Positions 1 through 54,550 of a stretch of DNA of 54,550 bases are shown here, piece by piece. How positions within the stretch are numbered: position 1 is the stretch's first letter; each line of letters opens with the position of its first letter. Location: assembly GCA_001724265.1 (NCBI GenBank), contig MEDY01000076.1, positions 124,001 to 178,550 of the forward strand. The letters are read 5' to 3'. A program made the translations under genes and the position numbers. The DNA comes from Rhizaria sp. SCN 62-66. Lineage: Eukaryota. The notes under the pieces are model-generated. The model did no database searches and was not told the origin of the DNA. It saw only the letters and a list, made by a program, of their open reading frames with translations.

Positions 1-3000
1 ACCAAAGAACTTTGCAATAAAAATGTCCGTATTCTCAGCGTCGCTGCCGTAGTGATCTTTCCGCTCAATGTTTGCGTTTTCGGAGCTGTTGATATCTCCA
101 CTTCTGGGCTGGTTGATTTCGTCGCCGATGAGCACGATGTCGCTCTTGAACGACTCCTCAGCGCGCTTGCTCAGTGCATCCAGAGAGAAAGAGCCTGAAG
201 ACGGCAGCTGCGACTCCGACTGCGACTGTGCGGCGCCGGGGGCCGCAAAAAAGCTGTCACGTTCGCTACTGCGGACAGCGCTGTCCGTGTTGTTGTTCAG
301 CATAATATGCTGAGTCATGGCGGCATCCTCAGCAGCAACACGTGTCGAAAAGACAACATTACGACGGCGACGGTTGTGCCTGGTATCTTGAGCGGCCTGA
401 TCTTGACCCTGCGCAGCATTGTCATCAGAATCAGCGACAGAGTCATCGCTCTCATCACTGGCCTCTTCAGAGGAGTGGCTTAACTTACTGTTGTCTGACT
501 TCTTCGGGACAAATGCAAGCCGAGCAAGGCCCAGGGGCAGCAGCTGTGCGCCGCTGACACCTGCAGTAACGCTCGTATTGAGAGTGGAGGAACTAAGGAT
601 GATAGTCGCGACAGCCTGCTCGAGCACGCGCCGCGCGCCGGTCTGCAGAGCGGCCTGACTGAGATCCGCAATCAGCGCAGTCGGAGCCCACCAAGGGGAC
701 GACTTGACTGAGCTCTCGACTGTCTCGGTCATCTTAGCAATCATAGTGACAATATCAGCCCCGGTCTGCTAGCTCCCACCAGCGTGCTTGATGTTGCGGG
801 AGGTGACGGGCGTTTGCGGACTGCTGTTGAATGAGAACGCAGAGCGTGGCTGAGACGGCTTGTTGTTGCGCGGGGACAGGGCAGCATCGTCAACAGGAAC
901 AGCAGCGGTGACAGCGGAAGAGTTGTTCGTCTGCGTGACTGTGAGCACGAAGGGCAAACCGTTCGAAGCTAACGGCGACATGATAGCAGCTGCAGCTGTC
1001 GAAAAAGCAGGAATAGTGAGCATATGACCACGGCCAGATACGTCGTTGCTATTTTGACTGCCGTGGAGCGAACTGCTCGCAGTCGTCGAGGCAGAATATG
1101 GTATCATCGAGTTGCTACTGGACTGACCGACAACGAACGACTTGCCGGCCACAACACGCGCCGCGTCAGCATCAGCAGCAGCAGCAGTATTCTTATTGCT
1201 AGCGCTGATGTTGCCTGCGACAGGCAGCGGGGCGAGGCGCGGAAGCAGCAAGTCGACGACGCTCGCGTACAGTGCGAACCTCTGTGCGTGCGTTATGACA
1301 CCGGCCGAGGTTGACTGGAACGACGGCGGAGACACAGGGCGATGCTGGCTGCCGCTGATGCTGTTCGCGGTCTGAAGAGGCGCGAGTGCAAGTGCAGCCG
1401 CCACCGAAGCCGAGACGGGGGGTAGCGCGCGGACACTGGCCCTGAATGTGACAACAGCGCAGTCAACGTCAGTGCTAGAACTAGCAGTGCTAAGATTGTT
1501 GTGGCCGGTGGGCAGCACAATAGCAGACGTCGCGAGGAGGACGCTACGCGCGCTAGTCGCGATGCGGCGCAGCACTGCAGCCACAGCAGCAAGGTTGGTG
1601 GAGGACGCAGCGGCGGCAGCAGCAGCAGCAGCGCGTGAGAGCGCCTCACTGGCGTTCACCGTAGAGGTCGCACTGTTAGCGCTGTTAGCGCTGGCGGTGG
1701 ACAGGAACGCGTGCGAGATAGCTGCGAAGATGCCATCATAGCAGGGGGCAGAGACGGCGAACACGTGGTCAACAGCAGGAGCAGGCAGCGCCAACGTCAC
1801 ACAGTCACTCGCTGCGTTGCTCTTGTAGATGTGGTCGCCGCAAATAAGAGGAGCTGAGAGAATAAACAAAGGGAAGATGTGCACCTTGCGCTGGCTCGTC
1901 AGATGTAAGTGTCCCTCACCAGCGCCATTTGAGTGCGGTCCTTCGGAAGACAGTGGCTGAGATACGGGGCTTGGCTGAGAGACAGGGTTTGCCAGCGACA
2001 CAGCACCAGTCACGCGGGAGATCGTGAGCAGCGTGTACACACCAAGCGGTAGTCCGCTCTCAACAATGTCTTCGTTGGCAGCAGAGTCACCGTGAGGAGC
2101 CATTGTAAGCGCCGAGCTGTTGCCGTTCCAATTGTCACTGTAATCGCTGTTTTTTTTGTTCAAGGCGGAGACCGCGTACGTGGTTGACGTGTACGGAGTG
2201 ACGCCACGCGTCAGCGTTTGCGGCAGCATCGCCTGCGCCAGCAGTGACCGGGCGACCCAGTTGGCCGCGCGCACGCGCCACGCCAGCGCCAGCGCCTCTG
2301 CGTCCGCGCGGGCGCGGGCGGCGCGCTTGGCGGTCTTGCGCTGTTCACGGTCACTCGCGGTCTCGGTCTCGCTTGCACTCTCGCTGTCAGAGTCCACATT
2401 GTTCCTGTTGACATCGCTCTTGTTGTTCTTGTTGCTGTCGGACTTTGCCTTCTCTGCATCTGCAGCAGCGATGGCGAGAGCCTGGGTGGCGATCGCAAGC
2501 GTGGGCACGTTCCGCAGCATCAACACGTCGACAAGCGCCTCACTTGAGATCGCCTTAGCAGCTGAAGACACCGATGCGCCGCTGCTACGAGCGGAGCGAT
2601 TGCGGTTTGCCCAGTCGAACAGCGCGGTTGTGACCGCAGCCGCGAGGCCCGAATCGCACCACTCGACAAACGACCGGCTCACAGTCACAGAACAAGCGCT
2701 GCTAGTGCCATTATGAGTGGTGTTACTCGGGTTCGCACTCGCACTATTGGTGGGAGTCAAGGATAGAAGTGCGTTGAGAATGGTGCACACTGCAGTTGGG
2801 TAGTGAGACGGGATGCCAAACAAATCAGTCCCAATCATAGCAGTCGTGTCATTACTCGACTGCACCTGTGCCTGTGGCTGTGCCTGTTGTTGTTGCGGGG
2901 CGAGTGACAACGGCACCAAAGCGCCGACAGTAGCGAGTGCAGAGACGAGCTTGTCCCGGCAGTCGTGGTGGTAGCTGCTGCTCACAGTCACGGTCGCCGG

Positions 3001-14088: not shown

Positions 14089-16632
14089 ATGCAAGCGGGA
14101 TTCGAAAAGCCCGCTGCCGGCTCAGGAGCGCCATCCCCCGCTCGCCCCCGCCCCCATGCTCATCCCTCATCTCCCCAGCATCAACCGTAGCAGCGACAGT
14201 ACCAGTGCGGCGATGTGAGATACACGGAGGGCAACAGCGACACGCATGCACACAGCACGCTTTGGGCATCTTCAACTCTCGGTGCTGCAGACCAGCAACG
14301 GCGGCCGCAGCAACAGTACTCTGAGAACGAAAGCAGCATGACACTTCACAGCACTGCGGCGCGCAACCACAGCTATGCTGAGAGGCACCCAGGTAACTTA
14401 ATGGATAATAGCGTTGAATTTAGCAACATCAGTGCGATCGCGGATTGCTCCAACGCGATTGCAACCTGCAGATCTGACATGAATGCAAACAGTTTGAGCT
14501 CCAGTGATATCGCGGGACAGGTCCAGAGCCTGCCATACTCACGCTTTGTGCAGCAGCAGCACCATCGACAACAAATTCAGTATCAATACTTAATGCAGCA
14601 ACGAATGCGGCAACAGCAACAGCACCAGCATCATCAACAGCAGCAACCTGCGAGTGCGGTAGACACTTCCGCTCGCTGCCACAGTCCAGCTGCTGTTGCT
14701 CGGAGTCATTCAACTGCTGCCCTCAATCCCGCAACTGCTGCCCGCAGTCGATTGACAACTGCGCACAGTCCAGCGGCCTCTCTTGCTCAAAGCTACCATC
14801 CGACCTCTCCTGGTCACGGCCACCGTACTGCGTCTCCTGCAGTAGCCCACGGTCAGACGTGCATGTTTCACACGCCTCCAGGGTCTCCGAAAACGGCGAC
14901 GGTTATCACTGCGCGGACGACCTTGAACGCAGGAACAACAACAGCGGCAACATCGCTCATCACAGACAATGCTACCAGTTCCACCATCAACGATGATACC
15001 GCCAACATGTCTCTTGATGACACGACAAGCTCCCGCATAAACTTGAACACAAGCTCTGTTGACCGTGCAACTGCCGACACCGCTGCGGATGCTAACGTCG
15101 CGCCAACTCTGGTTCTGTCTCTGCCACCACAACCGCTGTCGAATAGTTCGAGCACCGCTAGCATTGCAAGTGCGAATCAGAGGTTGAGCGCCAACACAAG
15201 CGCCGGTGGTTTGTCGTCTGCGAGCGTTGCTGCTAAACTTCACGCAGCAATGCATGTGCTTCACAAGACGATCACTGCGCTCAAGGCGCGTATCTACTCG
15301 GCAGAGTCAGTCCTCTCGCTCTTCTACCACCGACTCACATGTAACAGCATCAACAAAAGCAGCGCTGACCGCAACGACACTGGTGACGCCGCAGCCACTC
15401 AGGCGTACGATAACTATGTGCAAACATACGGTCCGATTGCTGTCAACAGCAGCAGCAACAGCAACACTCACGCCAGCACTAGCAGTCTGAACATGAATAT
15501 CTTTAGTGCGAGCGCCAGTGTCAATGCGAGTTCAACTGCGTCCATCAACCATGCCAACTACTTGGCCGCGATCCGACTGCTGCGGCGCAAGCTGGAGGCG
15601 ATGTCGGCTGATCACGACGTTTTAGTGGTGCAAAAGGCGGACTTGGCCGCTGCGCTGAACGCGGCGCGTGACCGTGAGCAGCGCAACGCGCGCGCACTGG
15701 CAGCGGCAAGCGCGGCGGCGGCCACGGCAGAGAAAGCGGCGACGGGGACTGCATCGGCGAAGGCTGCGGCCAAGGCTGCGATTATGGCCGCGGCGGCTGC
15801 GACGGCAAACGCCGAGGCCAGGGCTGCCGCCGCGGAGGCAAGGGCCAAGGCCGCTGAGGCCAAGGTTGCGAAGGCCGAGGCGCGGACGGTTGCGGCTGAA
15901 GATACCGCAGTGTCCGTGCACGACACGGTGATTGCGACGCGCAACAGGGAAGTCTCCGCCGCGGAAGCCCGGGCAGCAGCCGCGGAGGCTATGGCTGCTG
16001 CGGCAGAGAGAAAGGCGGCCGCTGCTGACGCGGCGTCGCGGCAGCTGCGGGCTGCGGCTGAGAGCGACAGCGCAGACGCAGCAGCGAAGGAAGAGAAGCT
16101 GCGCCGGGAAGTGCAGCTGCTGGGCAGGCGGCTGCTGCAGCTTGCTCCAATCAGCAGCTACAACAGTTTAAACACTAGCATTGCTCAGACACACGTGGCA
16201 TTACCGCAACGGCAACAGCTGCAGCTGCAGCTTCAATCACCGCCAAGACAACAGGTTCATCAGTTACAGCAACAGCAGCAACAGCAGCAGCAACAGCAGT
16301 TTCGCTCACCGCCGCGGCCTCAGAGGCCTGTGACAATGCATTCACCGATGACTAGCAATACGCCGACGCATAATACCACGCTTAACAATACGAGTAACAC
16401 GATGGCCAATGGCACTGGTATGAACAGTAATAGAACTAGCGCACCGCATGGATGCTCGCCGCAGCTACAACAGCAAAAGTTAATGCAGCGTCCGCAACAC
16501 CAGCAACAGCAGCCGCAGCAGCAACAACAGCGTCAGCAGCAACAACTTGAACAGCCTCAGAACTGTTATCAGCAGCAACAGCAGCAGCAGCAGCAACAGC
16601 AGATCCAGCAACAGCGCACCCGTCGGTCGTAA
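14089..16632 (+). CDS. PolyQ-rich, Ala-rich coiled-coil hypothetical protein (~847 aa if TAG at 14188-14190 is read as sense)
   Basis: ATG at 14089 sits right after an in-frame TAA at the AT-to-GC transition: MQAGFEKPAAGSGAPSPARPRPHAHPSSPQHQP[TAG]QRQYQCGDVRY..., in frame with ORF 14215..16632. Heptad-like region LRRKLEAMSADHDVLVVQKADL...KEEKLRREVQLL. Stop TAA. If TAG is a stop, the alternative start is ATG 14338. Confidence 0.75.
14188..14190 (+). other. In-frame TAG codon (context CAG CAT CAA CCG TAG CAG CGA CAG TAC CAG), putative sense codon
   Basis: Lies 33 codons after ATG 14089 in a Gln-rich stretch; the frame stays open for a further 813 codons. Confidence 0.65.
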
Positions 16633-23331: not shown

Positions 23332-25353
23332 TTACTCGTCCTTCTTAGCAGGCTCCTCCTCGTCGTCGTCGTCGTCGTCCTCGTCGTCGTCATCAGATGG
23401 AGCAGCCTCGTCATCGTCATCGTCCTTCTTCTTGGCCTCGTAGTACCCGTCGACCTTCATGTCCTTAAGCCCCAGCATGTCCAGCTGTGCCTCCGAGCGG
23501 TCGTAGTGCTCCACAGTGAGCATCGCATCCGCGTACGGGTCCGTGTCCGGGCAGCCGTCGACGCGGCCCTCCACGAACGAGTTCCCCACCGGGTCGTCGA
23601 GGATGAACGTGAAGGGCGTGTCGCCCTCGAGCAGCTCCTTGACGCGCGCGATGAACTCCTGCATCTTGCTCTTCTGCCCCGCCTCGGCCGAGTCGCCGGC
23701 GTAGAAGCCGACCGTCTTGTCGAGCTGGTCCACGATGTCGAGCAGGATGCCCTCGACGGTGGAGAACTTGCCGCCCAGCGTGCCGTGGCCGAGCTCCAGG
23801 TCCAGTTCGGGGATGATCACCGAGGCCTCGTCAGACTTTAGCACGTCGCGGGTCAGGTCCTCCTTGCAGGTCGCCTGCAGCGTGATCTTGACGGCCTGTG
23901 ACGGAAGATGTAAAAAGCAAAGGGAAAGTGGACGAATGTTAGATTTGATGGCACACATTATCACTGAATAGAAAACAACGTTGATGTTAACATAGGTACA
24001 TGAAAATCGGTTAGGTATCTTTCTATCGATACAAAAGAGTGTGAATATATGCTGCTACTGATTAAGAAGACGTACCTGGTCGGAGACGCCACCTCCGGGC
24101 TTGATCTCGGAGTCCTTGAAGCCGCAGTGCTCGCACGTAGTGCACATGACGATCACGGTCTGGAAGTACGGGATGTCGATCAAGCACATCTTGGTGTAGT
24201 TGTCGCGCCCGCACTCGTGGCACTGCGCAGTGAAGTCGGCCGCCTTGTTGGCGCTGTCACTGATCAGCGAGTCGAACTTCTCCAACGGCTTCTTGTCCAT
24301 CATCGTCGCCGCCATCGTCTTGAGCGGCGCCTTGGAGCCGCCCGACTTGTACGTGTCGCCGCGCTCGGGCGCCAGTCCGTCCGCGCGCACGGGGGCCGCA
24401 ATGTGCGCACCCGTGCCAGGCAGGTTCGGGTTCAGCCCGCTTGCGGCGATGGCCGCCGCGGTGGCCTTGGCCTTGGCAGCGTTCTCGCGGTTGAGCGCCT
24501 GTTGCTTGGCCTGCTTGCCGCGCAGCGCCGCCTGGTCCTCCTTGATCTGCAGCATGGCCGCGGCGATGAGGTCGCGCTTGAATGCCTCAGCCTCCTCGGC
24601 CTTGACCGCGAGCACCTGCTCCGAACCCGCGGAACCCGTGGCGGCTTCACTTGCGGCCATCTGCGCGAGCTCCTCGTCCGTGGGGGAAAAGCCCAGGTCG
24701 ATGACCTCCTGACGCGTGCGCTGGCGCTTGATCACCTTGCACCGCGGGTCGGGGCCGGGTGCGTAGGGGTTCTGGATGAACGAGTTGCCAGCCAGGTCGT
24801 CGACGATGAAGGTGAACGAGTCCTTGCCCTCCTGGAACATCTCCATGCGCTGGATGAAGTCGGTCATCTTGGCAAACACCTCGGGGTCCTCCGCCTGGCG
24901 CTGGTCCTGTCCGGCCATGAGCGACTCCTTGATGTTGAGGAGGAAGCCTTCGAGCGTGTTGAGCTCGGCGCGCTTAGCGGGAATCTCGAAGTCAACCTCG
25001 GGGATGAGGATGCGCGCCGTCTCGGAGCGGACGATGTTGCGGCACAGGTCCTTGCGGATCTCCTCGTCCGAGCACATCATGGCGTCGACCGAGAGCTCGT
25101 AGCGCACGGCCGTGTCGGCCAGCCCGGCGGCGGACTTGACTTCGCGGGAGCGGAATTGGCAGTGCGGGCACTCGAACGACGTGACGAGGATCTCCTTAAA
25201 CATGGGGATCATCATGAGCAGCACGTGCGTCGTGCCGTTCTCGAAGCACTTCATGCAGACGGTTTCGACGATGTGCACGTCGCCCGTCTTGGTGTGGCGC
25301 ACCGTGTCGCGCATGCCGGGCTTGTCCGCGTGCTCCGTGGGGGTGGGGTCCAT
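23332..25353 (-). CDS. ZPR1: Zinc finger protein ZPR1; complement(join(23332..23895,24076..25353)), ~613 aa
   Basis: Two ZPR1 modules (CMKC...IPMFKEILVTSFECPHC; CHEC...IPYFQTVIVMCTTCEHCGFKDSEIKPGG), NTLEGFL/STVEGIL, DDLAGNSFIQ/DDPVGNSFVE, and an acidic tail. Intron GTACGT...CACAG. Stop TAA. Confidence 0.95.
23896..24075 (-). other. Spliceosomal intron (180 nt) in ZPR1
   Basis: GTACGT donor, CAG acceptor; joins GGGVSDQ|AVKITL. Confidence 0.9.
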
Positions 25354-41558: not shown

Positions 41559-42347
41559 TGTTGTGGCTCAGAGACGCTAACTAAAACTGGAGCAATAGCA
41601 ACGTTCGTAGCGTCCGCTGGACCGGCGAGAGCGAGAGACAACTGGGACGTTGTCGTCGTCGACTGTCGAGGGGAAGCGAAACAGAGAGAAGCGAGAGCGA
41701 AGAGGAGCAGAAAGGGGACCAGATATCTGCCCGCAAAGGCTGGGTCTGCGCAAAATTAGAGACGCGGCAAGTAGAAAAGAAGCAAGATGAAGTGAGATGT
41801 GACATCCAGAACACTATACACGGAAAATAGATACCGCACGACATCGTCGAATGATGTCCCAAGATAGCCCCAGAGGAGGCTGGGACCGCTGACGCGAGAG
41901 TCAGTGAGCCAAGTGACCGTGAGCAGCCAGCTAGCTCGCCCGCCAAGAGAAGAGTTGATTGAGCGGGAAAAAAGGGCGACGAATCTCGGTTTTGCGCATG
42001 AGATATATCGATGGCTGTGACATCAAAATGATATTTGAGTTTTGCTTAAGACTGTCCAAGAGCTTCTTTATGGGCACTTTTAAAATTAAACGCGGATATT
42101 GTTTGTCTGCCCCTCAGTTTCAAACCTCAACAACGTCACCATGATGACAGTCCAACACCCATTCCCGCCGCATTTTGGTCATGTCCACACTCACATCACC
42201 ACTATTTTTCTTTGCAACATTGCACTCCCGGCATTCGTGTGTACGTTCTCAGGGCTTCTTTTTTTAGTACGCTTTTTTAGTCAGCCAGGGCTCCGCAAAA
42301 CGCATCCGGGCGCACGGCCCCCCCTAGTTTCTCCCAGATCGCGCCCG

Positions 42348-45300
42348 ATGAGCACCCCTTTGCGCTCCGGGCTCCCCGCGGCCCCAGTCCACGGCCCGCC
42401 GCTGCCGCCGGCGTCCGACGCCACCGTACCCTCTGCTTTCTTCCCGCAGTCCACATTTGCCGCGTCTTCGTCCTCGTTCCCCGCGGCAGCGCTGCCCACC
42501 TTCAAGCCTTCGCTCTCTCACGATGGCTCTGCCGCGCCCGCCCCCGCCGCCGGCGCCGCTGCCGCCCATGGTTCGGCCTCTGCGTTTGCTGCCTTTGCGC
42601 CATTTGCGTCGCTTGCCGCCGCAGCGGGGCCTGACGCGTTTAAGATGGCCCCCGCGCCCTTCGGCAGCCCCCACCCCGGCCCCCACCCCAGCGGCCACCA
42701 GGGCTACACTGGCTACACGGGCGCCACTGCGAACAGCGCGTTCTGCAACCCCGCGATCGCCAAGCCCGTCGCCACCGCGTGGGGCGCCGCGGCCCACGCC
42801 GCCGTGACGCCCGCGGCCGCGCACCGCGCGGTGCAGGCCCTCGGCACGGGCACGACGGCCGACACCAGCCCGTTTGCGGGCAACACCACCGCGGCCAACA
42901 CCACCGCGGCCAACACCACCCTCGGCGGTCCCTTCGCCCTCGGCAACCAGAGCAACGCGGCTGCAGCCAGCGCCAACGGCGCCGCCTGGGGGCTCGCGTC
43001 GCCCGCGTCCGCGTTCTCGGGCGCTGGCGCTGGGGCCGGAACCGGGTTCTCTAACGCGTTCGGGTCCCCAGGCCTCGCGTCTCCTGCTGCTGCGGCCTCG
43101 TACGGCAACAACGACAACGACAACGCGGATGTGACGTCGCTGTCAGTGGCCCCTGCGCACCGCAACGCGGCCCGCAATGGACTCGCCCTCAGCAACCGCA
43201 CGGGCAACAAGCAGCAGCAGCGGCAACAGCGGCGGGCGAACGGCGGCGTCGGACGCTACGCCAGCTCTAACAACAATCGCAATATGCACAGCAGCGGTGA
43301 TGATGACGACGACTATGAGGACAATGCGGGCAACAACAACAACAACAGTAATAGCCTGCTCTCGCCCATTGCTCCCTCTGCTGCTGCTGCTGGTGCCCCG
43401 GTCCTTGGCCATAGTCACAGTGGCGGGCCTGCTCCTCAGGGACGTGTGTCAGCTTTCACGGTCAACTCGAAGGCAGCCTTCACGAACGTGGTCAACAGCA
43501 GCAACAGCAACGGCTTTGGCGCCGGTGGCGCGTCTGCGTTCGCCTTCTCGCACACAACACTCGCACACAACACCGGCGCGGGCGCGAATGTCACCAGTGC
43601 AAAGATCGCTGGCGCAGCTGTTGCCGCTCCGTTGGGGCTCGGCGGCCAGGGCCAGAGCCGGGATCAGAACATCGAGTGGCGCTCTCACTCGCACACGCAG
43701 GCGAAGGTGAACACCACCGCCGGCACGGGTGGTAATAACAGAAACGACAACGCCGCGGCCGCGACGGTGAACGCCGACACCGACGGCGGCAACCGGAACC
43801 CGTTTGCCGCGCTGTCCGCTCCAAGCGCTGTGAGTACTCTCGCCCGCAATGTAAGTGGGGCCGACTTTCCTGACCCGTCGCGCCTCCTACTGTTCCGCGA
43901 CGACGACGACGACGATGATGATGATGACCGCGTTGACGCGGGCAAGCTTGCGAGCAACGGCGTTGTGACCGGCAACACGATTGGTGGCCGCTTCGGCCAG
44001 AGCAGCTTTATGGCAAAGCAGCAGCAGCAGCAGCAGCAGCAATCAGGTGCCCACGGCCACTCCGCCACTGCCACTGCGGCTGCTGCTGTTGGTGCTGTCG
44101 GTGCCCCGGTGGACCTGGACTGCTCATTCGCGTCTTCGGTCGCCGCCTCGGACGCTGCTCCCGCACACAACGCCGCCGACATGAGCCACAGCAACAACGC
44201 CACCAACGACACGGTGATCATCGACCGCAACGGCACCGGCAACGGTACTGGCGGCAACGAGCAGTGCGACTTCGATGACGACGACGGCGGCTTCGGCGGG
44301 GGCGTGTTCGCGACCGTCAACCTCGCGCACCTCCCTTCGCACTCAAACCACGCCAACGGCAATCCCAACAGCAGCGACAACAGCGTCAACACGAGCACGG
44401 TCGCGGGCCTCCCGGTCATCGGCGCGACCGCGCGTACGCTGTTCAACGGCAACAGCGCTATGCACATGGAGAACGACACCGACAACGGCGATAACGTCGT
44501 CAGCGTCTACAGCCACTCTGGCGCTGCTGCCGGGGCCGCGGCCGGGGCTGGGGCGCAGGGCAACGGCGACGGCGACGGCGACGGCCGCGACCGCGCAGCG
44601 TGCGGTGGCGACGACGACAGCTCCGATGGCTTTGTGATCCGCACCGACCGGCGCATGCTGAACCGCGCCTACTCGCAGGCCTCGTCGTCGACCACCACCA
44701 ACGCCAATGGCAACATGCACGCGAGCGCTGCGAACCCGAATCCGATGTTCGTCTCCGCGTCTGGCTTCACCGGGTTCAGTCCCGCAGCCCACGGCCACTC
44801 GAACCACAGCCTCAGCCAGGCGCGCGCGTCAGGCGCGGCGGGCCAGGGCTACCACGTCTACGATTGGAGCAGCAGCAACAGCGCGAGACGCGGCGTGGGC
44901 GTGGGCGTGGACATCGGCCGCAGCAGCAGCGCGCTGAGCGGCGCGTCGGCCGTGTCATCGCAGCAGCAGCCGCTGGCGCGCGCGCTCGCCTTCAGCGACA
45001 CTGACGGCGACGCCGACGCTGACGCTAAAACCGACGTTGACGGTGATGCTGAGGCCGAGGCTGAGGCTGGAGACAACGGCGTCGGTCGCCTCAACTCGAG
45101 CCGGACTAATGCGGTCGTCAGCGCGGCCGCGAATAACCTCTTTTCCATTAACAGGGGCAACGGCGGTGGCAACAATAATGCATTTGACGCGCGGTCGCCC
45201 CAGGTTTTTTCGGTCCCTGCCAGAGCCCTCTTCCCCCAGCAGTCAACCGCAAGCGCCAACAGCAACGGCAACGGCAACGGCAACATGGCTCACAACGGCG

Positions 45301-48300
45301 GCAACGTCGTCGCCCGCAGCGTCTCCGAGACTCTGAGTGAGCAGTTCACGGCGAGCGTGACCCTCGCCACCAGCGACGCCAGTGACGGCGACCGCGACCG
45401 TGGTGGCGTCATGAGTACGGGAACACGTGGTACACACGCGCATGGGGCGCTGGGCACGCGTGGCCCGCGCATGGCGCCCCGCTCGCCCGCGCGCCCCCGC
45501 CCCGGCAACAACAAGGACCCCTCGTCCCCCGCCGCCGGCAACGGCAACAGCAACAACGGGGTCGGCGCCGCGCTGGGCGGCCAGTCGCACCAGGGCAACG
45601 GCAACGGCGGCGGCGCCAACAGCGGCGGCGGCAGCGGGCACAGGCGCGCAGGCAGCGGCGGGCACGGCAACGGCGACGAGGACGACGACGACGGCGACGA
45701 CAGCGACGACGGCAACGGCGGCGGCGGCAGCAGCGGCAGGCTACGCGGCGGCGCGCACGTGTGCGTGTCCTGCCGCATGCGGCCCGCGCTGCGCGACGGC
45801 GAGCCGTGCGGCGTGTGCAAGCGCCAGAGGCTGCACCGCCTGGCCGTGCAGGCCGCCATGCGCCGCCAGCAAAAGCAGCAGCAGCTACAGCAGCAGCAAC
45901 TCGAGCAACAGGCTTACGAGCAACAGCAAATGCAGGTGGATGGTATGGTGGGCTCTGGGCGGATTGACTTCAGCGCTGGCCGGCTTGACTTCAACACCAT
46001 GGGTCTGCGCTTCCGCGGCCCGGCCGCGCTCAGCGACGACGAGCGTGGCGACGCCTTCGACACCGCCCACGGCCACGGCCACGACGACGACGAGGACGAA
46101 AACGAGGACGAGAACGAAAATGACCGCAGCCACGCGAGCAGCGGCCTCAACACGAGTCTGAACCTGAGTCGCCCGCGCACGCGCTCGCAGTCGCGCGCGC
46201 AATCGCAAACGCGCGTCCGCACCCGCAGCGGCGCGCGCAACAACAATAATAGCAACAACAACAGCAACGCGAACGCTGGCGTCAACACGAGCGGCTCAGC
46301 TTTAGGCGGGCTGTCGTCGCTGGACACGACGCGCGTCAGCCAGGACGACGGCAACCTCAACGCCAGCGCCGGCGGCGGCGGCGGCGGCGGCGGTGGCCAC
46401 GGCCGCCGGGTGAGTCAGGGCCATGGGCAGCTGATGTTCCGCGACTTCCGCGACGGCGAAAGCGACGTAGACGACGGCGGCCACTGCAACGTCACCGGCG
46501 ACATGAAGGCCCTCGTCGTCGCAGACTCCGCCCAGTAGCAACAGCAGCTGCAACAGCAACAGCAAGGTGCTGCCCGGACCGTTACGGTGACCGCCGCCAC
46601 TGCGCCGACTGCCCTCTCGACGCCCACCTCCGCCGAAGCCGAGGCCAATGCCCACGCGCGCGCCCACGGTCACGGCCACGGCCTTAACCTTGGCAGCGTC
46701 GACGGGGACGCCGCGGAGGCCGTTGCGGACGGCCGCGGGCACCGACGCGTGTTCTCGCTCGTAGCCGACAGCAGCATCCCCGCCGGCAGCGGCGCGCCCA
46801 CGCCGCTCGCCTCGGCCACGGCCGCCGCCGCGGTCGCGCGCGCCGCTGCCGCCGCCGGCGTGGTGAGCGCGAGCGACGCGGCGCAGGCCGCAGTCAATAT
46901 CAGCGTGAGCAATATGAGTGCGAACGATGACGAGCTCGAGTGCACGGTCATCGTGCCGCCGATGCTCGACTCGTCTGTCAGCGAGTACAACAACAACTAC
47001 AACCATGCGAACAACAACATGGTGGACTACTACGCGCAGAACATCAGCAACGGCAGCATCAACCACAGCAACGGCGGCTCTGCGATTGCTGCTGACAACG
47101 CTCGCATCGGTGTGAACGTGCCCGTGAAGGCGCGCAACGGCCGCAGTGTGCGCAGCAGTGGCCGCAGCGGTGCTAACAATAACAACAATCACATTGCGAA
47201 CGCGAGTGCGGCCGTCAACACGAGCGCGGGCCAGAGCCACAACGCGAGCGCGGTGCACGGCGGCGGCCGGCGCCACTCGCTGGCGTCGATCCCCGCCGCG
47301 GCCGACTTCACCGAGGCCACCCTCGGCGGCGACGACGACGGCGAGGGCGGTGTGGACGCGACCGCGATGCTGATCATGTACGACGCCGAAGACGCGGCGA
47401 ACCACCACAACATCAGCGGCGGTAGCAACGCGCACGCGCAGTCGGGCACTGGTCACATCGCCGTGCCCGGCGGCGGCAACACTGCCGCGCTGCCGCCGGC
47501 GCAGTTCCACAACACGAGCGCCATCTCCCACAGCAGCAGCAGCAGCAGCAGCACCGCCAACGGCTCCCACGCGGCTGCGACGGCGGCGGCTGTCAACGCC
47601 AACGCCGGCGTGGGCGTGACGCCGTTCGTGCTGCGGACGCGCGGCGCGACGGGCCGGTCTTCCGGCTCCACTGCCTCCGTCGCCCTCAGCGCCGGCTCCG
47701 GCTTCAGCGCCAACTCCGCGGCCGTCGCACACGGCGCAGGCGTCAACGGTGTAGTGAGCGACTACGACGGCGAGTTCGATCCCGCCTTTGCGGCGGCCGC
47801 GCTGGGCCGCTCCGCGCACGTCTCCCTCAACAACACCAACAGCAGCGCCGCCACCGCCGCTCAGAGCCGCGCGGGAGCGCGGGGCGGCCGGCGCGGCGCC
47901 GTCTTGGCGACCCCGCTGACTGGGACCACGCCGCCCGCGCCGCAGTCCGCGAGCGTCGCGGCCGGGCCGCTCGGCCACGGCCACGGGGCGGGGCGCGGCG
48001 GCAACGCGCGCACGAGTGCGTGGGCTGCTGCCAATGGCAACGGCAACCCGACTGCGACTGCGCTGTCCTTCGGCGACTCGGACGCCGAGGCTGGTGGCGC
48101 TGATGGTCACAGCAAGAGAGCGTTTGCCCCGTCGAGTCCCCCGTACGCGGCTGCGGCCTCCGCTGCCGTCGCCGCCGCATCGGCGACTGCCGCTGTGAAC
48201 CATAGACTGAACAACAACGGGTCCTGCGCGATCTCGGCCGCTGTCCCGTACACGCTCACGTCCGACGGCTTCGAGCCCCCGGTCGGCCAGGTCGTCAGCA

Positions 48301-51300
48301 CGCGTGTCCTCAGCACCAGCGGCGCCGCTGCCGCTGCTGCTGCTGCGTCCATGGGCGCGAGCAGCGCGGACAGCGAGGGCACGCTGCGCCCCTGCCCTCC
48401 CGGCTTCACGCCATCCCCGTCCTTCTCGTTCCGCCGCCTCGGCGACGCCAACGGCAACAACAACGGGGTCGGCAACGCGCGCAACGGCCTCCACGGCAAC
48501 ACGACGGTCATGAGCAGCAGCGCCAGCGGTGAGGCCGCCGTCGCCGCTGTCGCCGCGCCCGTGATGCCCATGCCCGTGCCCTCGGCGTTCTCCTTCGGCC
48601 CCTCGTTCCCCAACAACACCAGCAGCGGCAACGCTGTTAATGGCGCCGGCAATGTCGCCGGTGCGAGGATGTGTCCCCCCACCGCTATGAAGCACTGGCC
48701 CAACAACAACGCGAACTCGGCCGCCGTCGCGAACGGCACCAACAGTATCTACAGTGGCAGCGCGAGCAACAGCGCGTTTTCCTCCGTCGTCAGCATGGGC
48801 GGCAACGGCAGCAGCTTGCGCAACATGGCTTCCAGCGTGAACGCGACTGCGAACCGCGCCTCCGTCGCTGGCGCCGGCGCTGGCTCTGGCGCGAGCGCTG
48901 GTGCGACTGCGGGCGCGGGCACGGGCGTGGGCGTGGGCGTGGGCGTGAGCGCGGGCCACAGCCGCGGCCCCCGGCTGGAGCCGCGCCGTAAGCGCAGCGC
49001 ACAGCCGCGGCCGCCGGAGCTGGACAAGCGCAACGCCGTGGCGCGCGGCGGGCCGGGCGCGCGCAACGTGACCGACAGCCGCGTGCTCATGTCGCGGCTC
49101 AACTCGCGCGCGGTTCCCGTGCTGGAGCTCTCGCACAAGATTGGCGAGGGCTCCTTCGGTGCCGTGCTGCAGTGCCGCGTGCGCGGGCTGCCGGGTGTCT
49201 TCGCCGTCAAGCGCTCCAAGGAGACGCTCAAGGGCGAGCTGGACACCAAGGCGCGGCTCAAGGAGATGGTGCTCATCACCATCATCGGCCCGCACAGGCA
49301 CATCGTGCGCTACGACGCCGCGTGGCGCCAGGACGGGCTCTTCTACATCATGCTCGAGTGGTGCGCCACCGACCTGCTCCGCTTCGTTGAGGTCTACGAA
49401 GCGCTGCTGGACCAGCCCGTGTCGGACCTGTTCCTGCTTTCGTGCGCGTACCAGATCGCGTCCGGGCTCGCTGCGGTGCACGCTGCGGGTGTAGTCCACC
49501 TGGACATCAAGCCTGACAACGCGCTCGTCTCGGACGGCGGCGTCGTCAAGCTGGGCGACTTCGGTACCGCGCTCGAGGTCGCGCGCGTCGCCGACGGCGC
49601 CGAGGGCGACAGCAAGTACATGGCGCCCGAGATGCTGCTGCAGCTGAACCCCACGTCGGGCGCCGGCGCGCTCGGCGGCCGCAAGCTCTCCATCTTTAGC
49701 TCGAGCACCGCCGCGCCCAGCGCCAGTGTCACCACCTCGAGCTCCACTGACTCTAGCTCTGCTAAGAAGGGCGCGGCTGTGACGATGGGCGACGGTGACG
49801 ACGCGGGCGACGGCGGCAAGACTGAGACGGCGTCGCCGCTGGGGATGGCGAGTCTGCTTCAGAACCGTCCCGGCAGCAGCAGTGCAACGGGGACTGTGGT
49901 GGCCGACTCCGCGCCTCTGCCCCCCGCGAGCAGTGCTAATGCCCCCGCGGGTGCGGCCGGCGGCCCCACTGGCCGCAGCAGCCCCCAGTCGCGCCCGCGC
50001 ATCACCGGCGCCGTGGACCTGTACTCGCTGGGCGTGCTGCTGCTGGAGCTCGCTCTGGGCGTGGAGCTGCCGTGCGAGGGCCCCCTCTGGCGCCTGTTGC
50101 GCTCCGGCGACAAGGCCAAGCTCGCCGCGCTGCTCGAGAGCGGCGAGTTCACGCCCCGCGCCCCCGCCCCCGCCCCGCTCCATAGTAGCGCGGACGCCAG
50201 CGCCGGCGCCGGCCACGCGCCCGGGACGACGGGCCCCCCGCCCGACCCCAGTCTGGTGCCGCCGCACGTGTACGCCGCGTACGTGGCCACGGGCACCACC
50301 GCCAACGCCGCCGCCGTCCTCGCCGGCCTCGGTGCCAGCGGCTCTGCCACGGCCGCCGCCGCCGCTGGCGTGAGCGCGACGGAGCTGTTGCAGCGCAGCG
50401 ACCTGCACGCGACGCTGAGCTACGTCGACACAGTCGCCAGCAACGGCAACGGCAACGGCGCTGGTGGCAACGCGGCCAGCAGTGTGACTGGCGCGGCCGG
50501 GATGGTGACGCCCCGGCTGGGCCCGCACTCGGTCTTCAACAACGCCAACGCGGGCAACGCCGCCAACGGCCAGCGTGTGTCTGCGTTCAACTACAGCAAC
50601 ACCAGTGCCATGAACAACAACACTAGCTTCGCCGCCGCGTTCCCTGCCGCCACTGGATCCGGCAACAGCAGCGGCCTCGCCTCGCCCGTCTCCTTTCCCA
50701 ACGCCACCGCCGCCGGTGCGCCCGCCCCCGCGCCCGCGCCCCTGCCCGCGCCTATGATGGGGATGTCGCATGACCACCACATGGCGCTGCGCAACCGGTC
50801 GATGAGCGTCGTGCAGATGGACAGCGAGGACAGAGGCGCTCTCGCCGCAATGGCCTCCGCCGCCGCTGCTGCTGCCGCCGCCTCGAGCAACGCTGGCTAC
50901 CAACAGCAACTGCTGCAGCAGCAGCAGTACGCGGCGCCAGTGCCTGTGAAGCGCGTGCTGAGCGCCAACATCAAAAGCCTGATCCTAAGTCTGCTCGACT
51001 GCGACCCGTCGCGGCGGCCCACGGCGGCGCAGGTCGCTGAGCTGGTGCAGCGGCTGCCCGAAGCTCGCGGCGCCGACCTGACGCGGCTGCCGGGATGGGA
51101 GCTCGTGCTGCCTTGCGTCCCAGGGTCCTGGCCCTTCCCGCCGGAGCCGCGCTTCCCCAACGCCGCCGGTAATGGCGCCGGCGCTACGGCCGCCAGCGCC
51201 GGCGCGAACGGTGCTCCGGGGGCGCAGCGGCTGCCGGCCGTGGGGCTGGGCAACTCGTCGGCCAGCTTCGCGGGCTCGTACGACTTCGCGGGCAGCGAGT

Positions 51301-54300
51301 CGGGCTTCCAGACGCCCACGGTCGCCGCCATGGCGGCCTCGGCGCGCAACGCCTTCTTTCCCGCCACCACGGCCGCTGCTCATAATAACCCGAATGGAAG
51401 CAATCACGGCAAGACCGCGGGCCTGCAACAGCCGGGGCTGGCCGCGCCTGCGCTGTCTCTGTCTAGCTCCGGCGGCAGCGGCGGCACGTCCGGCGCCGGC
51501 GCAGGCGCAGGCAGTGGCAGTGGTAACGGCGGCGGCACCGTTACGCGCATCCGCGCCGCCGCGGTGAGCACGCACTCGAGCGGGACCAGCAACGCCGGCG
51601 GCAGCCAGCTGCCTCCCTCGGGTGCTGCCAACGCGGGCGGCAACAGCAAGTCCGCTGCTGTCGGCACCGCCGCGGCTGCTGCCAACGACGGCCGCGTGAT
51701 GTCGCGCTCCGTCTCGAGCACCACGAGCTCCAACGCCAGCGGTGGCGTCAGCGTCGGCGTGGGCGGCTCTGTCGTCGGTCGCCGCGTGAACCCGCCGCCG
51801 ATCAACACCGCGGCCGCGAGCTTCAGCCTGGCCGGCGCGGCGGCAGGCATCGCGAAGCCCAGCAGCGCCAGCGCGGGCGTCGTCGCCATCAACGGCGCCC
51901 CCGGCTCCGGGTCCCTCAGCGGCTACACGCCCTCCTCCGAGGTGTCGGACTTCGCGCCCGTGCCGATGCCCGCCGCCGCCGCCGCCTCGGCCACCACGGC
52001 CGCCGCGTCGCCGCCCGCGCCTGCGTCCGCGACCGCCGCCGTGGTGTCGGCCGCGCACAGCATGCCGCTGCACCTGGAGATCCCGCAGACGCCGCCGAGC
52101 GACGTGACACCCGGAAATCAGGCCTCCGTGGCGGGCATCAGCAGCACCAACGCCGCCAACAGCGCCTTCGCGGCCTCGCTCGCGCAGCCCTGGCGGCCGG
52201 TCAGCAGCAACGGCGGCGGCAACGCCTTCGTCTCCGCGCGCGCCGCCGCCGCCGCCGCAGCGGGCGTGGGCTCGGGCTCTGCGTCGGGCGTTCTGGCGCC
52301 GCACCGCCTGTCCGTGGCCAGCTCCGTCAGCACCAACAGCAGCTTCGGCGGCCCCGGCGCCGGCTACGGCGCGGGCTACATGCAGTCGCAGTCGCCGTCC
52401 CTCACGAACATCGACGAGGGCGGCGCCAGCAACGCGGCCGTGGGCGCGAGCACGGGCAGTGCCGACGCTAACGCTGCCAATGATGGTGCGGCCGGTGCGG
52501 CCGGTGCTGCGAACGAGTCCGGTCCGATGTACGTGTTCACGCGCGCGCTCGTGTCGCCGTACCTGTTCTCGCACGCGCACGGCCAGGGCCTCGTCCTGGC
52601 TGCGTCCTCGCCGACGCCGTCGCCCCCGTCGCACACCGCGGGCGGGCTGGGGCACTTCACTCACTTCAACTACAACTACCACAACGGCGGCGGCGGCGGG
52701 AGCGGGTTCGATGAGTCGCTGCACCGCATGTCGCCTACGGGGTTTTTCCACAACAGCAGCGTGCACCACGGGCACCCGCCGCGGCCGCACGCGTACTCGC
52801 TGTCGTCGTCGACCTCCTCGCAGTCGCGCGGCGCGCAGCAGCAGCAGAGGCAGGGACAGGGACAGGGACAGGGACAGGCTAGTAATGGCACGAAGCAACA
52901 GCAGCAGCAGCAGCAGCAGCATCAGCAGCAGCAGAGTACGTACGGCATTTTTGAGCGCTCGTACAGCAGCGCCAGCAGCAGCAGCAGCATGAACGGCCTC
53001 ACCATGGCCGGCGGCGCCACTGGCGGCGGGCTCTATTCCATTGCCGGCGCCGCCAACTTCGGCACCAACGGCAATGGCGTCACCGCAGCCAGCAGCTTCA
53101 CTGCGGGCCGCCAGGTCCCGCCGCAGGCGCCGCAGCGGCCAGCCGCGAGTGCAAGCACGGGCGCTGGCACTGGCGCTGGTGCTGCTGCCGCTGCCGCTGC
53201 TGGACGGCCCAGGCTGTCGCTCGTCACTCAGTCCGCCAACGCCTCCGCCAGCAGCAGCGGCAACGCAGCCGCGGGCGGCAGCGCGAGCGACGGTGAGCGC
53301 CTCCCGACCGAGCCCGTCGACACGAACGGCCCGCTCGCTCACGCTGCGACCGACGCCGCTGACGGCGCCAGTGCCGCTATGGCGGCTGCCGCTCTCGGTG
53401 GCGCGGAGGACTCCGGTTTGATCACGCCGACGACTGCGGCGGCGACGTTTGCGGCGCTGCCCGTGCGCGTGGGCGGCTCGCACCGGCCCGCGGCGCTGCC
53501 CCCGCGGCCCTCGACGAGCAACCCCACCCCCGCCGCAGTCGTCAGCACGAGCGCGGCCAGCGCCAACGCCGGCGGCGTCGGAGTTGGCGTCGGCGTCACA
53601 GGCTCGGCGTTCACGCGCACGGGCGGGGCGCACGGTCACGGGATCGGGCTCAGCCATGGTCAGGGACACGGGCCCGCTGCGGCCGCCGCGGCGGCGGCGG
53701 CTGCTGCGGCAGCGGCGGCGGCTGCGCAGATCGCCGCCAACGGCAACGGCAGCCATAGCAATAGCAATAGCAATAGCAATAGCAATAGCAACGGTGGCGG
53801 CGGCAGCAACATGAACATACGCACAGCGGCGCCGATGCCAGTGGTGACCCCGAACGCGAGCGCCCACTTCGGCGTCAGCGTCGTATCCGCGGCCTCGCCG
53901 ACGATGCTGCTGGGCCACGCGCTGCAGGCGGGCAGCCTCGACAGCTGCGCCTCCTTCGGGCCCTTCGTCCACGCCGCCGCCTCCAGCACAGGCAGCAGCG
54001 GCAGTCCCAGCAGCAGCAGGCTCACCGCCAGCGCCATCGGCCTGGCGTTCGGCGCCGGCGGGCCGCTCTCGCCGCGCACGCCCGTCGCGGCCACGCTCCC
54101 CGCCACCGGCAACCGCGTCGTCAGCGGCAGCGGCGGCGTCCCCGGCGTCATCAGCGGCTTCGTTTCGCTGGCGCGCGTGGACGGTCCGGCCGCCCTCGGT
54201 GGGCCCGCGGCGACGGCGGCGGCCTCGCTGCGCGCGCTGGCCCAATCCGAGGACGGCAGCCGTGACGGCAGCGCGGAAAGCCAGCAGCAGGCGCTTGCAC

Positions 54301-54452
54301 CCGCACGGGCCGGCCACGGCCACGGTCATGGTCAGGCTGCGGCCGCCGGCGCTGCGCACTGTGAGTTCGTGCTCGCGCCTGCCAGCAGCAGCATCAGCAG
54401 CGGCAGCGGCAACGACGCCCGTGGCGCGACTGCGCTGCCCCTCGCGCTTACA

Positions 54453-54539
<87 letters not shown>

Positions 54540-54550
54540 CAGCAACAGCA
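42348..54550 (+). CDS. Giant Wee1/Myt1-family protein kinase (>4000 aa), 3' end outside the window; in-frame TAG at 46536-46538
   Basis: The frame of ORF 42099..46538 continues past the TAG with no stop to the window end (~2670 codons). It encodes KIGEGSFG (49137), FAVKRSK, HLDIKPDN (49497), KLGDFG, the Wee1/Myt1 signature EGDSKYMAPE (49602), VDLYSLGVLLLELALGVELPCEGPLWRLLRSG and LLDCDPSRRPTAAQV. The ORF track misses it because it has no terminal stop. Start ATG 42348 is inferred. Confidence 0.88.
46536..46538 (+). other. In-frame TAG codon inside a polyQ run (GCC CAG TAG CAA CAG CAG CTG CAA CAG CAA CAG CAA), putative Gln
   Basis: Flanked by CAR codons on both sides; no intergenic-like or intron-like sequence nearby; kinase domain downstream in the same frame. 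Confidence 0.8.
54453..54536 (+). repeat. Perfect (CAGGCT)14 microsatellite encoding (Gln-Ala)14 in the Wee1-like frame
   Basis: Direct count of 14 perfect hexamer units, followed by CAG CAG CAA CAG. Confidence 0.95.

Follow-up and report, generated by a model that had tools for sequence, protein, structure and literature searches.

Probable reassignment of UAG to a scarce sense codon in the nuclear code of an uncultured rhizarian

The window (the whole stretch of 54,550 nucleotides that was analysed) ends in a Myt1/Wee1-like kinase gene that carries an in-frame TAG and overruns the contig (Table 1). In the frame of ATG 42348, the codons around the TAG at 46536 read CAG TAG CAA CAG CAG CTG CAA CAG CAA CAG CAA, and the letters thus confirmed the in-frame TAG in a polyQ run that a preliminary description of this DNA had reported. 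Our coding model returned 42340–54550 as a single unbroken coding segment, with high scores on either side of the TAG. The kinase domain downstream, also recognized in that description, had PKMYT1 (3e-25) and Wee1 (4.5e-23) as its top PDB matches in addition to its Pfam match and contained the catalytic motifs HLDIKPDN and EGDSKYMAPE; the C-lobe followed after 49649 and was interrupted by low-complexity inserts. When the genome was checked for another Wee1 paralogue, the second-best match to the kinase was only 34% identical. Within the low-complexity N-terminal part, positions 45762–45818 (plus strand) encode a CxxC-x11-CxxC motif and, after it, a basic helix, without a Pfam match.

Table 1. 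Features of the window that bear on TAG codons
Feature	Positions	Strand	Basis
In-frame TAG preceded by 1339 and followed by 245 coding codons; long gene of low complexity	769..771	-	Coding model
ZPR1 intron, 180 nt, GT..AG, GC 0.36, holding TAG 24055-24057	23896..24075	-	Homologues P0003 and P0006 without the insert
N-terminal part of the Myt1/Wee1-like gene (1396 codons), of low complexity and without Pfam domain	42348..46535	+	Frame, Pfam, coding model
PolyQ run enclosing the TAG, Q # Q Q Q L Q Q Q Q Q (#, TAG)	46533..46565	+	Letters and frame
In-frame TAG that arose from a CAG of the polyQ run; inferred to be a sense codon, probably for Glu	46536..46538	+	Letters; run X3 contig; residue from genome-wide evidence
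2670 open codons after the TAG; gene overruns the contig end	46539..54548	+	Frame; polyA-library pieces from 47604 on
Myt1/Wee1-type kinase domain, N-lobe to APE	49125..49649	+	Pfam PF00069, E 1e-34; PDB matches

The TAG at 46536 was also present in a contig from another study (run X3), which covered 46409–49195 with zero differences. Among the pieces listed for runs X4, X5, and X6, none covered 46536, which is not evidence either way. The strain comparison was made at likeness 85, where the tables were filled largely by other organisms, and about six strain differences were obtained among the four compared runs, too few for dN/dS. PolyA-library pieces 5′ of the TAG, among those listed, mapped to 43158–43486, 44142–44445, and 45219–45521, and the two halves of the gene had similar depth among the pieces listed, none of which was an RNA contig across 46536.

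Micro-introns starting at the GT at 46535 would be 4, 10, 13, 22, 28, or 32 nt long, each shifting the frame; apart from the 4-nt case, these are the lengths given in the preliminary description. From other donors, we found 141 frame-keeping GT..AG spans of 30–600 nt over the TAG, all with a GC content of at least 0.60, unlike the three measured introns (134–180 nt, GC 0.36–0.40, GTA donors), which supports the earlier view that splicing does not remove the TAG. Since the GC content between the TAG and ATG 46914 was 0.75, against 0.47 upstream of the kinase gene, and since coding scores were high on both sides, no spacer lies between the TAG and the kinase, and the kinase is not a separate gene, as had been proposed.

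The preliminary description had apparently counted three TAGs of this kind in the window. The TAG at 769–771 stood as a coding TAG, whereas that at 24055–24057 (minus strand) was rejected because it lies inside the ZPR1 intron. A further TAG at 14188–14190 (plus strand), 33 codons past ATG 14089 in a Q-rich run, is possibly in frame too; the coding score upstream of it was weak, and a 5′ UTR location is possible.

Stop usage was examined in 731,833 bases (2.1% of the 34.9-Mb assembly; 186,896 codons), a non-random sample comprising the window together with blocks from seven large contigs. We used a six-frame Viterbi coding model that placed an equal penalty on all three stops, and counted a stop as internal when 20 or more coding codons flanked it on both sides; a 40-codon window classifier had been dropped in its favor since antisense frames swamped the results. 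Within the coding segments of these 186,896 codons we found 24 TAG (17 + 7), no TAA, and no TGA codons, and two of the 24 TAGs were the window's own. One TGA call (L090; flanks of 39 and 20 codons) was set aside because it lay beyond the gene end. Conversely, the predicted gene ends, which come from the model and not from cDNA, were TAA in 58 cases (42 + 16), TGA in 35 (20 + 15), and TAG in none of 93. Under random nonsense mutation the expected share of TAG was 0.65–0.68, giving a probability of 3e-5 to 8e-5 for 24 out of 24. Internal TAG was rare, amounting to 0.013% of codons (about 1 in 7,800) and to 0.4% of GAG or CAG; with AGG/CGG at 0.25 and TTG/CTG at 0.21, it was about 50 times rarer than a comparable free synonym. 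The coding score covered about 80% of the sampled sequence, and very long single-exon frames (2,000–5,000 codons) with Ala, Asn, Gln, and Ser runs were common genome-wide.

By sequence, internal TAGs were found in eRF1, USP5, MetRS, and kinases, and most fell in low-complexity sequence. In the protein collection, USP5 is present as two fragments (P0263 and P0267), one of which stops exactly before the TAG, indicating that standard-code annotation breaks genes at TAG. Family searches revealed no coding TAG in the matches of the ABC, DEAD, kinesin, myosin, TTL, Ras, and dynein families; TAGs in 5 of 11 PF00069 matches, two PF07714 matches, and all 5 dynein matches, as well as those in DEAD, kinesin, myosin, and Ras domain matches, proved to be intron ends or interiors and were dropped. 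These searches covered the fetched matches, leaving aside multi-stop matches of SNF2, UCH, and TTL and also some matches with TAA or TGA only, possibly not introns (kinesin C66, dynein C164, Ras C64 and C317, and kinases C178 and C6). Together, these results indicate that UAG is almost certainly a sense codon in this nuclear genome. The readthrough that the preliminary description had invoked for the kinase is thus needed, while its cause is not peculiar to the kinase gene: UAG appears to have lost its role as a stop throughout the genome, which also has a cognate tRNA.

A pattern search gave eight matches, one of which was a tRNA gene with a CUA anticodon (73 nt; G000:C84:76008–76080, minus strand), located among ordinary nuclear genes and present in one copy by DNA search. 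It scored 58 bits against the Rfam tRNA model, with all stems paired and a poly-T directly downstream. ARAGORN labeled it Pyl from the anticodon alone; tRNA-Pyl is not known to have the canonical D-loop GG and T-loop TTC, and both are present here. Compared with 26 of the organism's own isotypes, the tRNA(CUA) was closest to Glu(CTC) (47/73), the next best reaching 41, with Lys at 39/73 and Gln(CTG) at 36/73. Its first five acceptor pairs were those of both own tRNA-Glu genes and its T-stem was that of Glu(CTC); identity to tRNA-Glu was only 64%, the anticodon arm was remodelled, and the variable loop had 4 nt. None of the 11 sites that matched UUA-type patterns held a tRNA(UUA), the patterns being those of intron-free tRNAs. 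Rfam scoring reached 63 of 506 tRNA candidates, and the tRNA set is to that extent incomplete. Among the tRNA-Gln loci (L024/L023 and others), one labeled Gln(TTG) was unlike the Gln(CTG) genes and had a 5-nt variable loop.

In the sole eRF1 found, one codon of the N domain is an in-frame TAG, without any indel (L032:1594–1596, minus strand; G000:C63), and this TAG was base-for-base identical in a separate metagenome contig (L158). Another eRF1 search match was rejected as a second eRF1 since it was Pelota-like. In 240 homologues, the TAG column held Glu in 223, Asp in 12, and Val in 1, with 4 unparsed. Because the nearest relative (P0141, 84% identical) has Val at this position, the column appears relaxed in the clade. 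At columns near-invariant in 120 homologues, we observed the changes T32S, M34V, G57S, T58K, L124M, L126M, and K130Q, while E55, Y125, and N129 were intact. The changes are not diagnostic: human eRF1 with T32S is largely unaffected in activity at all three stops (PMC3632111), and ciliates with the standard code can likewise have T58K (PMC5304391 supplement 6). In the eRF1 tree, a long stem branch was common to the organism and one relative, and the organism was not placed among the named taxa.

As for the residue, USP5 offers a second conserved column besides that of eRF1: 150 homologous matches, some of them mis-anchored, gave 140 parsed residues at the TAG column, with Glu in 73, Gln in 3, and Lys in 3, and both nearest relatives have Glu. 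Pfam bits summed over eight sites, relative to X, were +7.7 for Glu, +7.3 for Lys, +6.4 for Gln, +1.2 for Ser, −2.6 for Tyr, −4.4 for Leu, and −9.3 for Trp. On these scores Leu, Tyr, and Trp, and with Trp any UAG-to-UGG editing, are excluded, while Glu, Lys, and Gln lie within 1.3 bits. Some sites were uninformative: the TAG of a CaMK gene aligned to Ala/Tyr and that of a fumarate-reductase fragment to Thr; this fragment had no Pfam score, and no bacterial loci were found. One kinase TAG site, which corresponded to Asp or Ala in the organism's own paralogues, counts on the side of Glu.

The sequence contexts of 31 TAG sites gave a Q-minus-E classifier score of +0.8, compared with +42 (13 to 71) for true CAG and −49 to −15 for true GAG codons. 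Since this score was outside both ranges, a pure Gln or pure Glu origin of the sites was rejected; the contexts look like a mix of all single-step neighbors of TAG. In a mutation-mixture model, Lys, Ser, Leu, or Trp equalled or beat Glu in most settings, and without transition bias Gln was ahead of Glu. Such a mixture also fits mutation at unconstrained sites. The preliminary description had placed the TAG at 46536 in a Gln slot. That this slot shows TAG to stand for Gln was not supported, since the contexts as a whole are not Gln-like and the tRNA and the two conserved columns indicate Glu; the polyQ setting tells only the origin of this TAG (from CAG), not its meaning. Altogether, Glu is the probable residue, judging from the tRNA body and a small number of homologous columns.

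These observations would best be explained if UAG was lost as a stop and is read as Glu by the tRNA-Glu-derived tRNA(CUA), an account that we consider probable. Genes would no longer terminate at UAG, UAA and UGA having stayed stops, and a tRNA-Glu copy would have captured UAG as a dedicated nuclear tRNA(CUA), presumably expressed and charged with Glu. The ribosome would then pass 46536 and produce a single kinase exceeding 4067 residues, whose polyQ run would tolerate the replacement of Gln by Glu. Decoding of UAG is probably inefficient, since the single tRNA gene found would compete with an eRF1 whose UAG-contact residues are mostly intact, and the rarity of TAG likewise suggests poor decoding against eRF1. 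Poor decoding would in turn cause UAG to be strongly avoided, so that new TAGs would persist mainly at unconstrained positions and in large low-complexity genes.

We also considered whether the proposed code is in a codon-capture state in which the TAG in the N domain of eRF1 serves as a feedback sensor, higher eRF1 levels leading to more truncation of eRF1. The stop codon in bacterial prfB is an analogue of such feedback, and plant eRF1 is reportedly autoregulated through readthrough. The eRF1 feedback part is only suggestive because the chance of one TAG in a 437-codon gene at the measured rate is about 5% and the sister eRF1 has no TAG, and the combined proposal is a doubtful one.

The foremost alternative is that UAG was reassigned genome-wide to Gln, the Glu-derived tRNA(CUA) having switched identity so that it is charged by GlnRS. 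The position of the TAG at 46536 within polyQ agrees with this, as do several further Q-like contexts, the NEK-like kinase TAG (L042), which corresponds to Gln in the best PDB match NEK1, and two TAGs in L096, where the organism's own paralogous copies have Gln; the Pfam sum for Gln was 1.3 bits under that for Glu. In E. coli, GlnRS uses U35 as a determinant (PMC9976931), and U35 with G73 could allow mischarging of the tRNA(CUA) under charging rules that are known here from bacteria only. Conversely, the acceptor stem of the tRNA(CUA) is of the Glu type and unlike that of the organism's own tRNA-Gln, Gln occupies the TAG column in none of 240 eRF1 and only 3 of 140 USP5 homologues, and a synonymous CAG-to-TAG transition predicts mostly Gln-like contexts, against the near-zero score obtained. 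A change to Gln is therefore unlikely. L096 itself (G000:C681:1512–3600) lies on a contig of lower GC content; the gene contains a pair of internal repeats and a diverged copy of ubiquitin, ends in a coiled coil, and may be a mobile or virus-like element.

Somewhat less likely still is that UAG stands for Lys, or for a mixture of Glu, Gln, and Lys, with the remodelled tRNA(CUA) charged by several synthetases. The Lys sum in Pfam bits is high, the anticodon loop of the tRNA(CUA) is one base off that of the organism's own tRNA-Lys(CTT), the TAG contexts fit a mixture, and strong avoidance of TAG would suit a costly, ambiguous codon. However, Lys occurs in none of the 240 eRF1 and in 3 of the 140 USP5 homologues, the tRNA body matches tRNA-Lys at the 39 positions given above only, and mixed contexts are equally expected from mutation at unconstrained sites.

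It is very improbable that TAG is still a stop and that the internal TAGs represent nonsense alleles, pseudogenes, or assembly errors, or are corrected by splicing or by editing of UAG to UGG in the RNA. Their prevalence in low-complexity sequence, the many flagged TAGs in domain matches that proved to be intron ends, and the lack of an RNA contig across 46536 among those listed would fit this idea. Against it, internal TAA and TGA were both absent and TAG ended none of the predicted genes, the only eRF1 found carries a TAG, a cognate tRNA exists, the same TAGs recur in independent assemblies, Trp was the lowest-scoring residue, and there was no intron-like sequence at 46536. Finally, gene-specific programmed readthrough of UAG-CAA, regulating the Wee1-like kinase under an otherwise standard code, is hardly credible: CAA directly follows the TAG at 46536, UAG-CAA is a leaky context, as in viral readthrough sites, and C came next after 13 of 29 internal TAGs versus 25% of codon starts, but no common 3′ motif was found among the other internal TAGs, and the absence of TAG from all 93 gene ends and the tRNA(CUA) would be left unexplained.

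The nearest named match for both ZPR1 and USP5 was the rhizarian Lapot gusevi, and the 11 dynein heavy-chain loci found suggest a flagellate; from these sequences, the organism is probably a rhizarian flagellate. It recurred in bioreactor, wastewater, and activated-sludge runs of several studies, so that sampling looks feasible. One locus (L257; G000:C706:4459–8903) contained a highly divergent, AT-rich 18S over 4.4 kb with several insertions resembling group I introns, one of which bears a His-Cys-rich ORF. Given its divergence and AT-richness, this 18S cannot be relied on as the host's; it is reminiscent of heteroloboseans and may come from another protist in the assembly. The ubiquitin genes (L094, L097, L098, and L101) were monomeric, began with MS-MQIF, and had a three-residue tail at the end; the extra residue before the monomer may resemble the rhizarian polyubiquitin insertion.

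To our knowledge, reassignments of UAA and UAG almost always go hand in hand. UAG as Glu in a rhizarian, if true, would add a nuclear code to those known and give Rhizaria a second reassignment, unlike the first; even with Gln as the residue, this would be a new lineage carrying a UAG-only change. The organism likely has a new nuclear genetic code. With UAG about 100 times rarer than in Blastocrithidia, screens that want many in-frame codons would miss such a code, and similar codes may lie hidden among the eukaryote genomes already public. The combination observed, with no use as a stop, a cognate tRNA, and avoidance of the codon, would be the intermediate debated by the codon-capture and ambiguous-intermediate models.

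The kinase shares with PKMYT1/Wee1 kinases the HLDIKPxN catalytic loop, the EGDxxYMAPE activation segment, and the best PDB matches; it differs in that the gene encodes more than 4067 residues, mostly of low complexity, with inserts in the C-lobe, and its kinase function is a prediction. As to the code, the available parts of five papers (PMC11687900, PMC5304391, PMC10553269, PMC12153298, and PMC9161772) describe UAG-only reassignments to Leu in the rhizarian exLh and three ciliate MAGs and to Gln in Iotanema, Hartmannula, Trochilia, and Protocruzia, and UAG as Glu only where UAA is also sense; the list of UAG-only changes in PMC11687900, as available, comprises Leu, Gln, and Ser (Scotinosphaera) but not Glu. 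In the literature searched, whose coverage leaves out most subscription journals and bioRxiv supplements, no report of UAG as Glu with UAA as a pure stop was found, nor, in the same coverage, an earlier report of a code change for this kind of organism.

UAG is sense and UAA a stop, as here, both in exLh, which is likewise a rhizarian and reads UAG as Leu, and in Iotanema spirale, where UAG stands for Gln (Panek et al. 2017; PMC5304391). However, Leu scored −4.4 bits over the eight sites here, the tRNA(CUA) lacks a long variable arm, and exLh has in-frame UAG in most genes examined, versus about one codon in 7,800 in our sample. The eRF1 changes L69A of exLh and T32G of Iotanema are absent here (L69 and T32S), while M34V/I38V of Guttulinopsis eRF1 (Fig. 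S2 of the same paper) is in common with the present eRF1. The tRNA-Gln-derived suppressor of Iotanema and of table 15 (UAG=Gln) was not matched, and our contexts were not Gln-like overall, although two genes favor Gln. Phyllopharyngean ciliates, in which UAG encodes Leu or Gln and UAA is a stop (McGowan et al. 2024; PMC11687900), also represent UAG-only changes from metagenome-assembled genomes; they have one or two tRNA(CUA) genes from the cognate isotype, and residue and lineage differ here.

The closest parallels for the proposed decoding are codes in which, according to the available parts of the reports, UAG is read as Glu by a tRNA-Glu-derived tRNA(CUA), namely those of Oligohymenophorea sp. 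PL0344 (UAG=Glu, UAA=Lys; PMC10553269) and of peritrich ciliates and Blastocrithidia (UAR=Glu; PMC12153298). In all of these UAA is also sense, whereas here TAA was the commonest gene end and never internal, and no tRNA(UUA) was found at the matches searched. UAG makes up 1.38–1.66% of codons in Blastocrithidia (PMC12153298, as available) versus 0.013% here, and PL0344 has ten tRNA(CUA) genes with 69–93% identity to tRNA-Glu (PMC10553269, as available), compared with the one gene and 64% identity found here.
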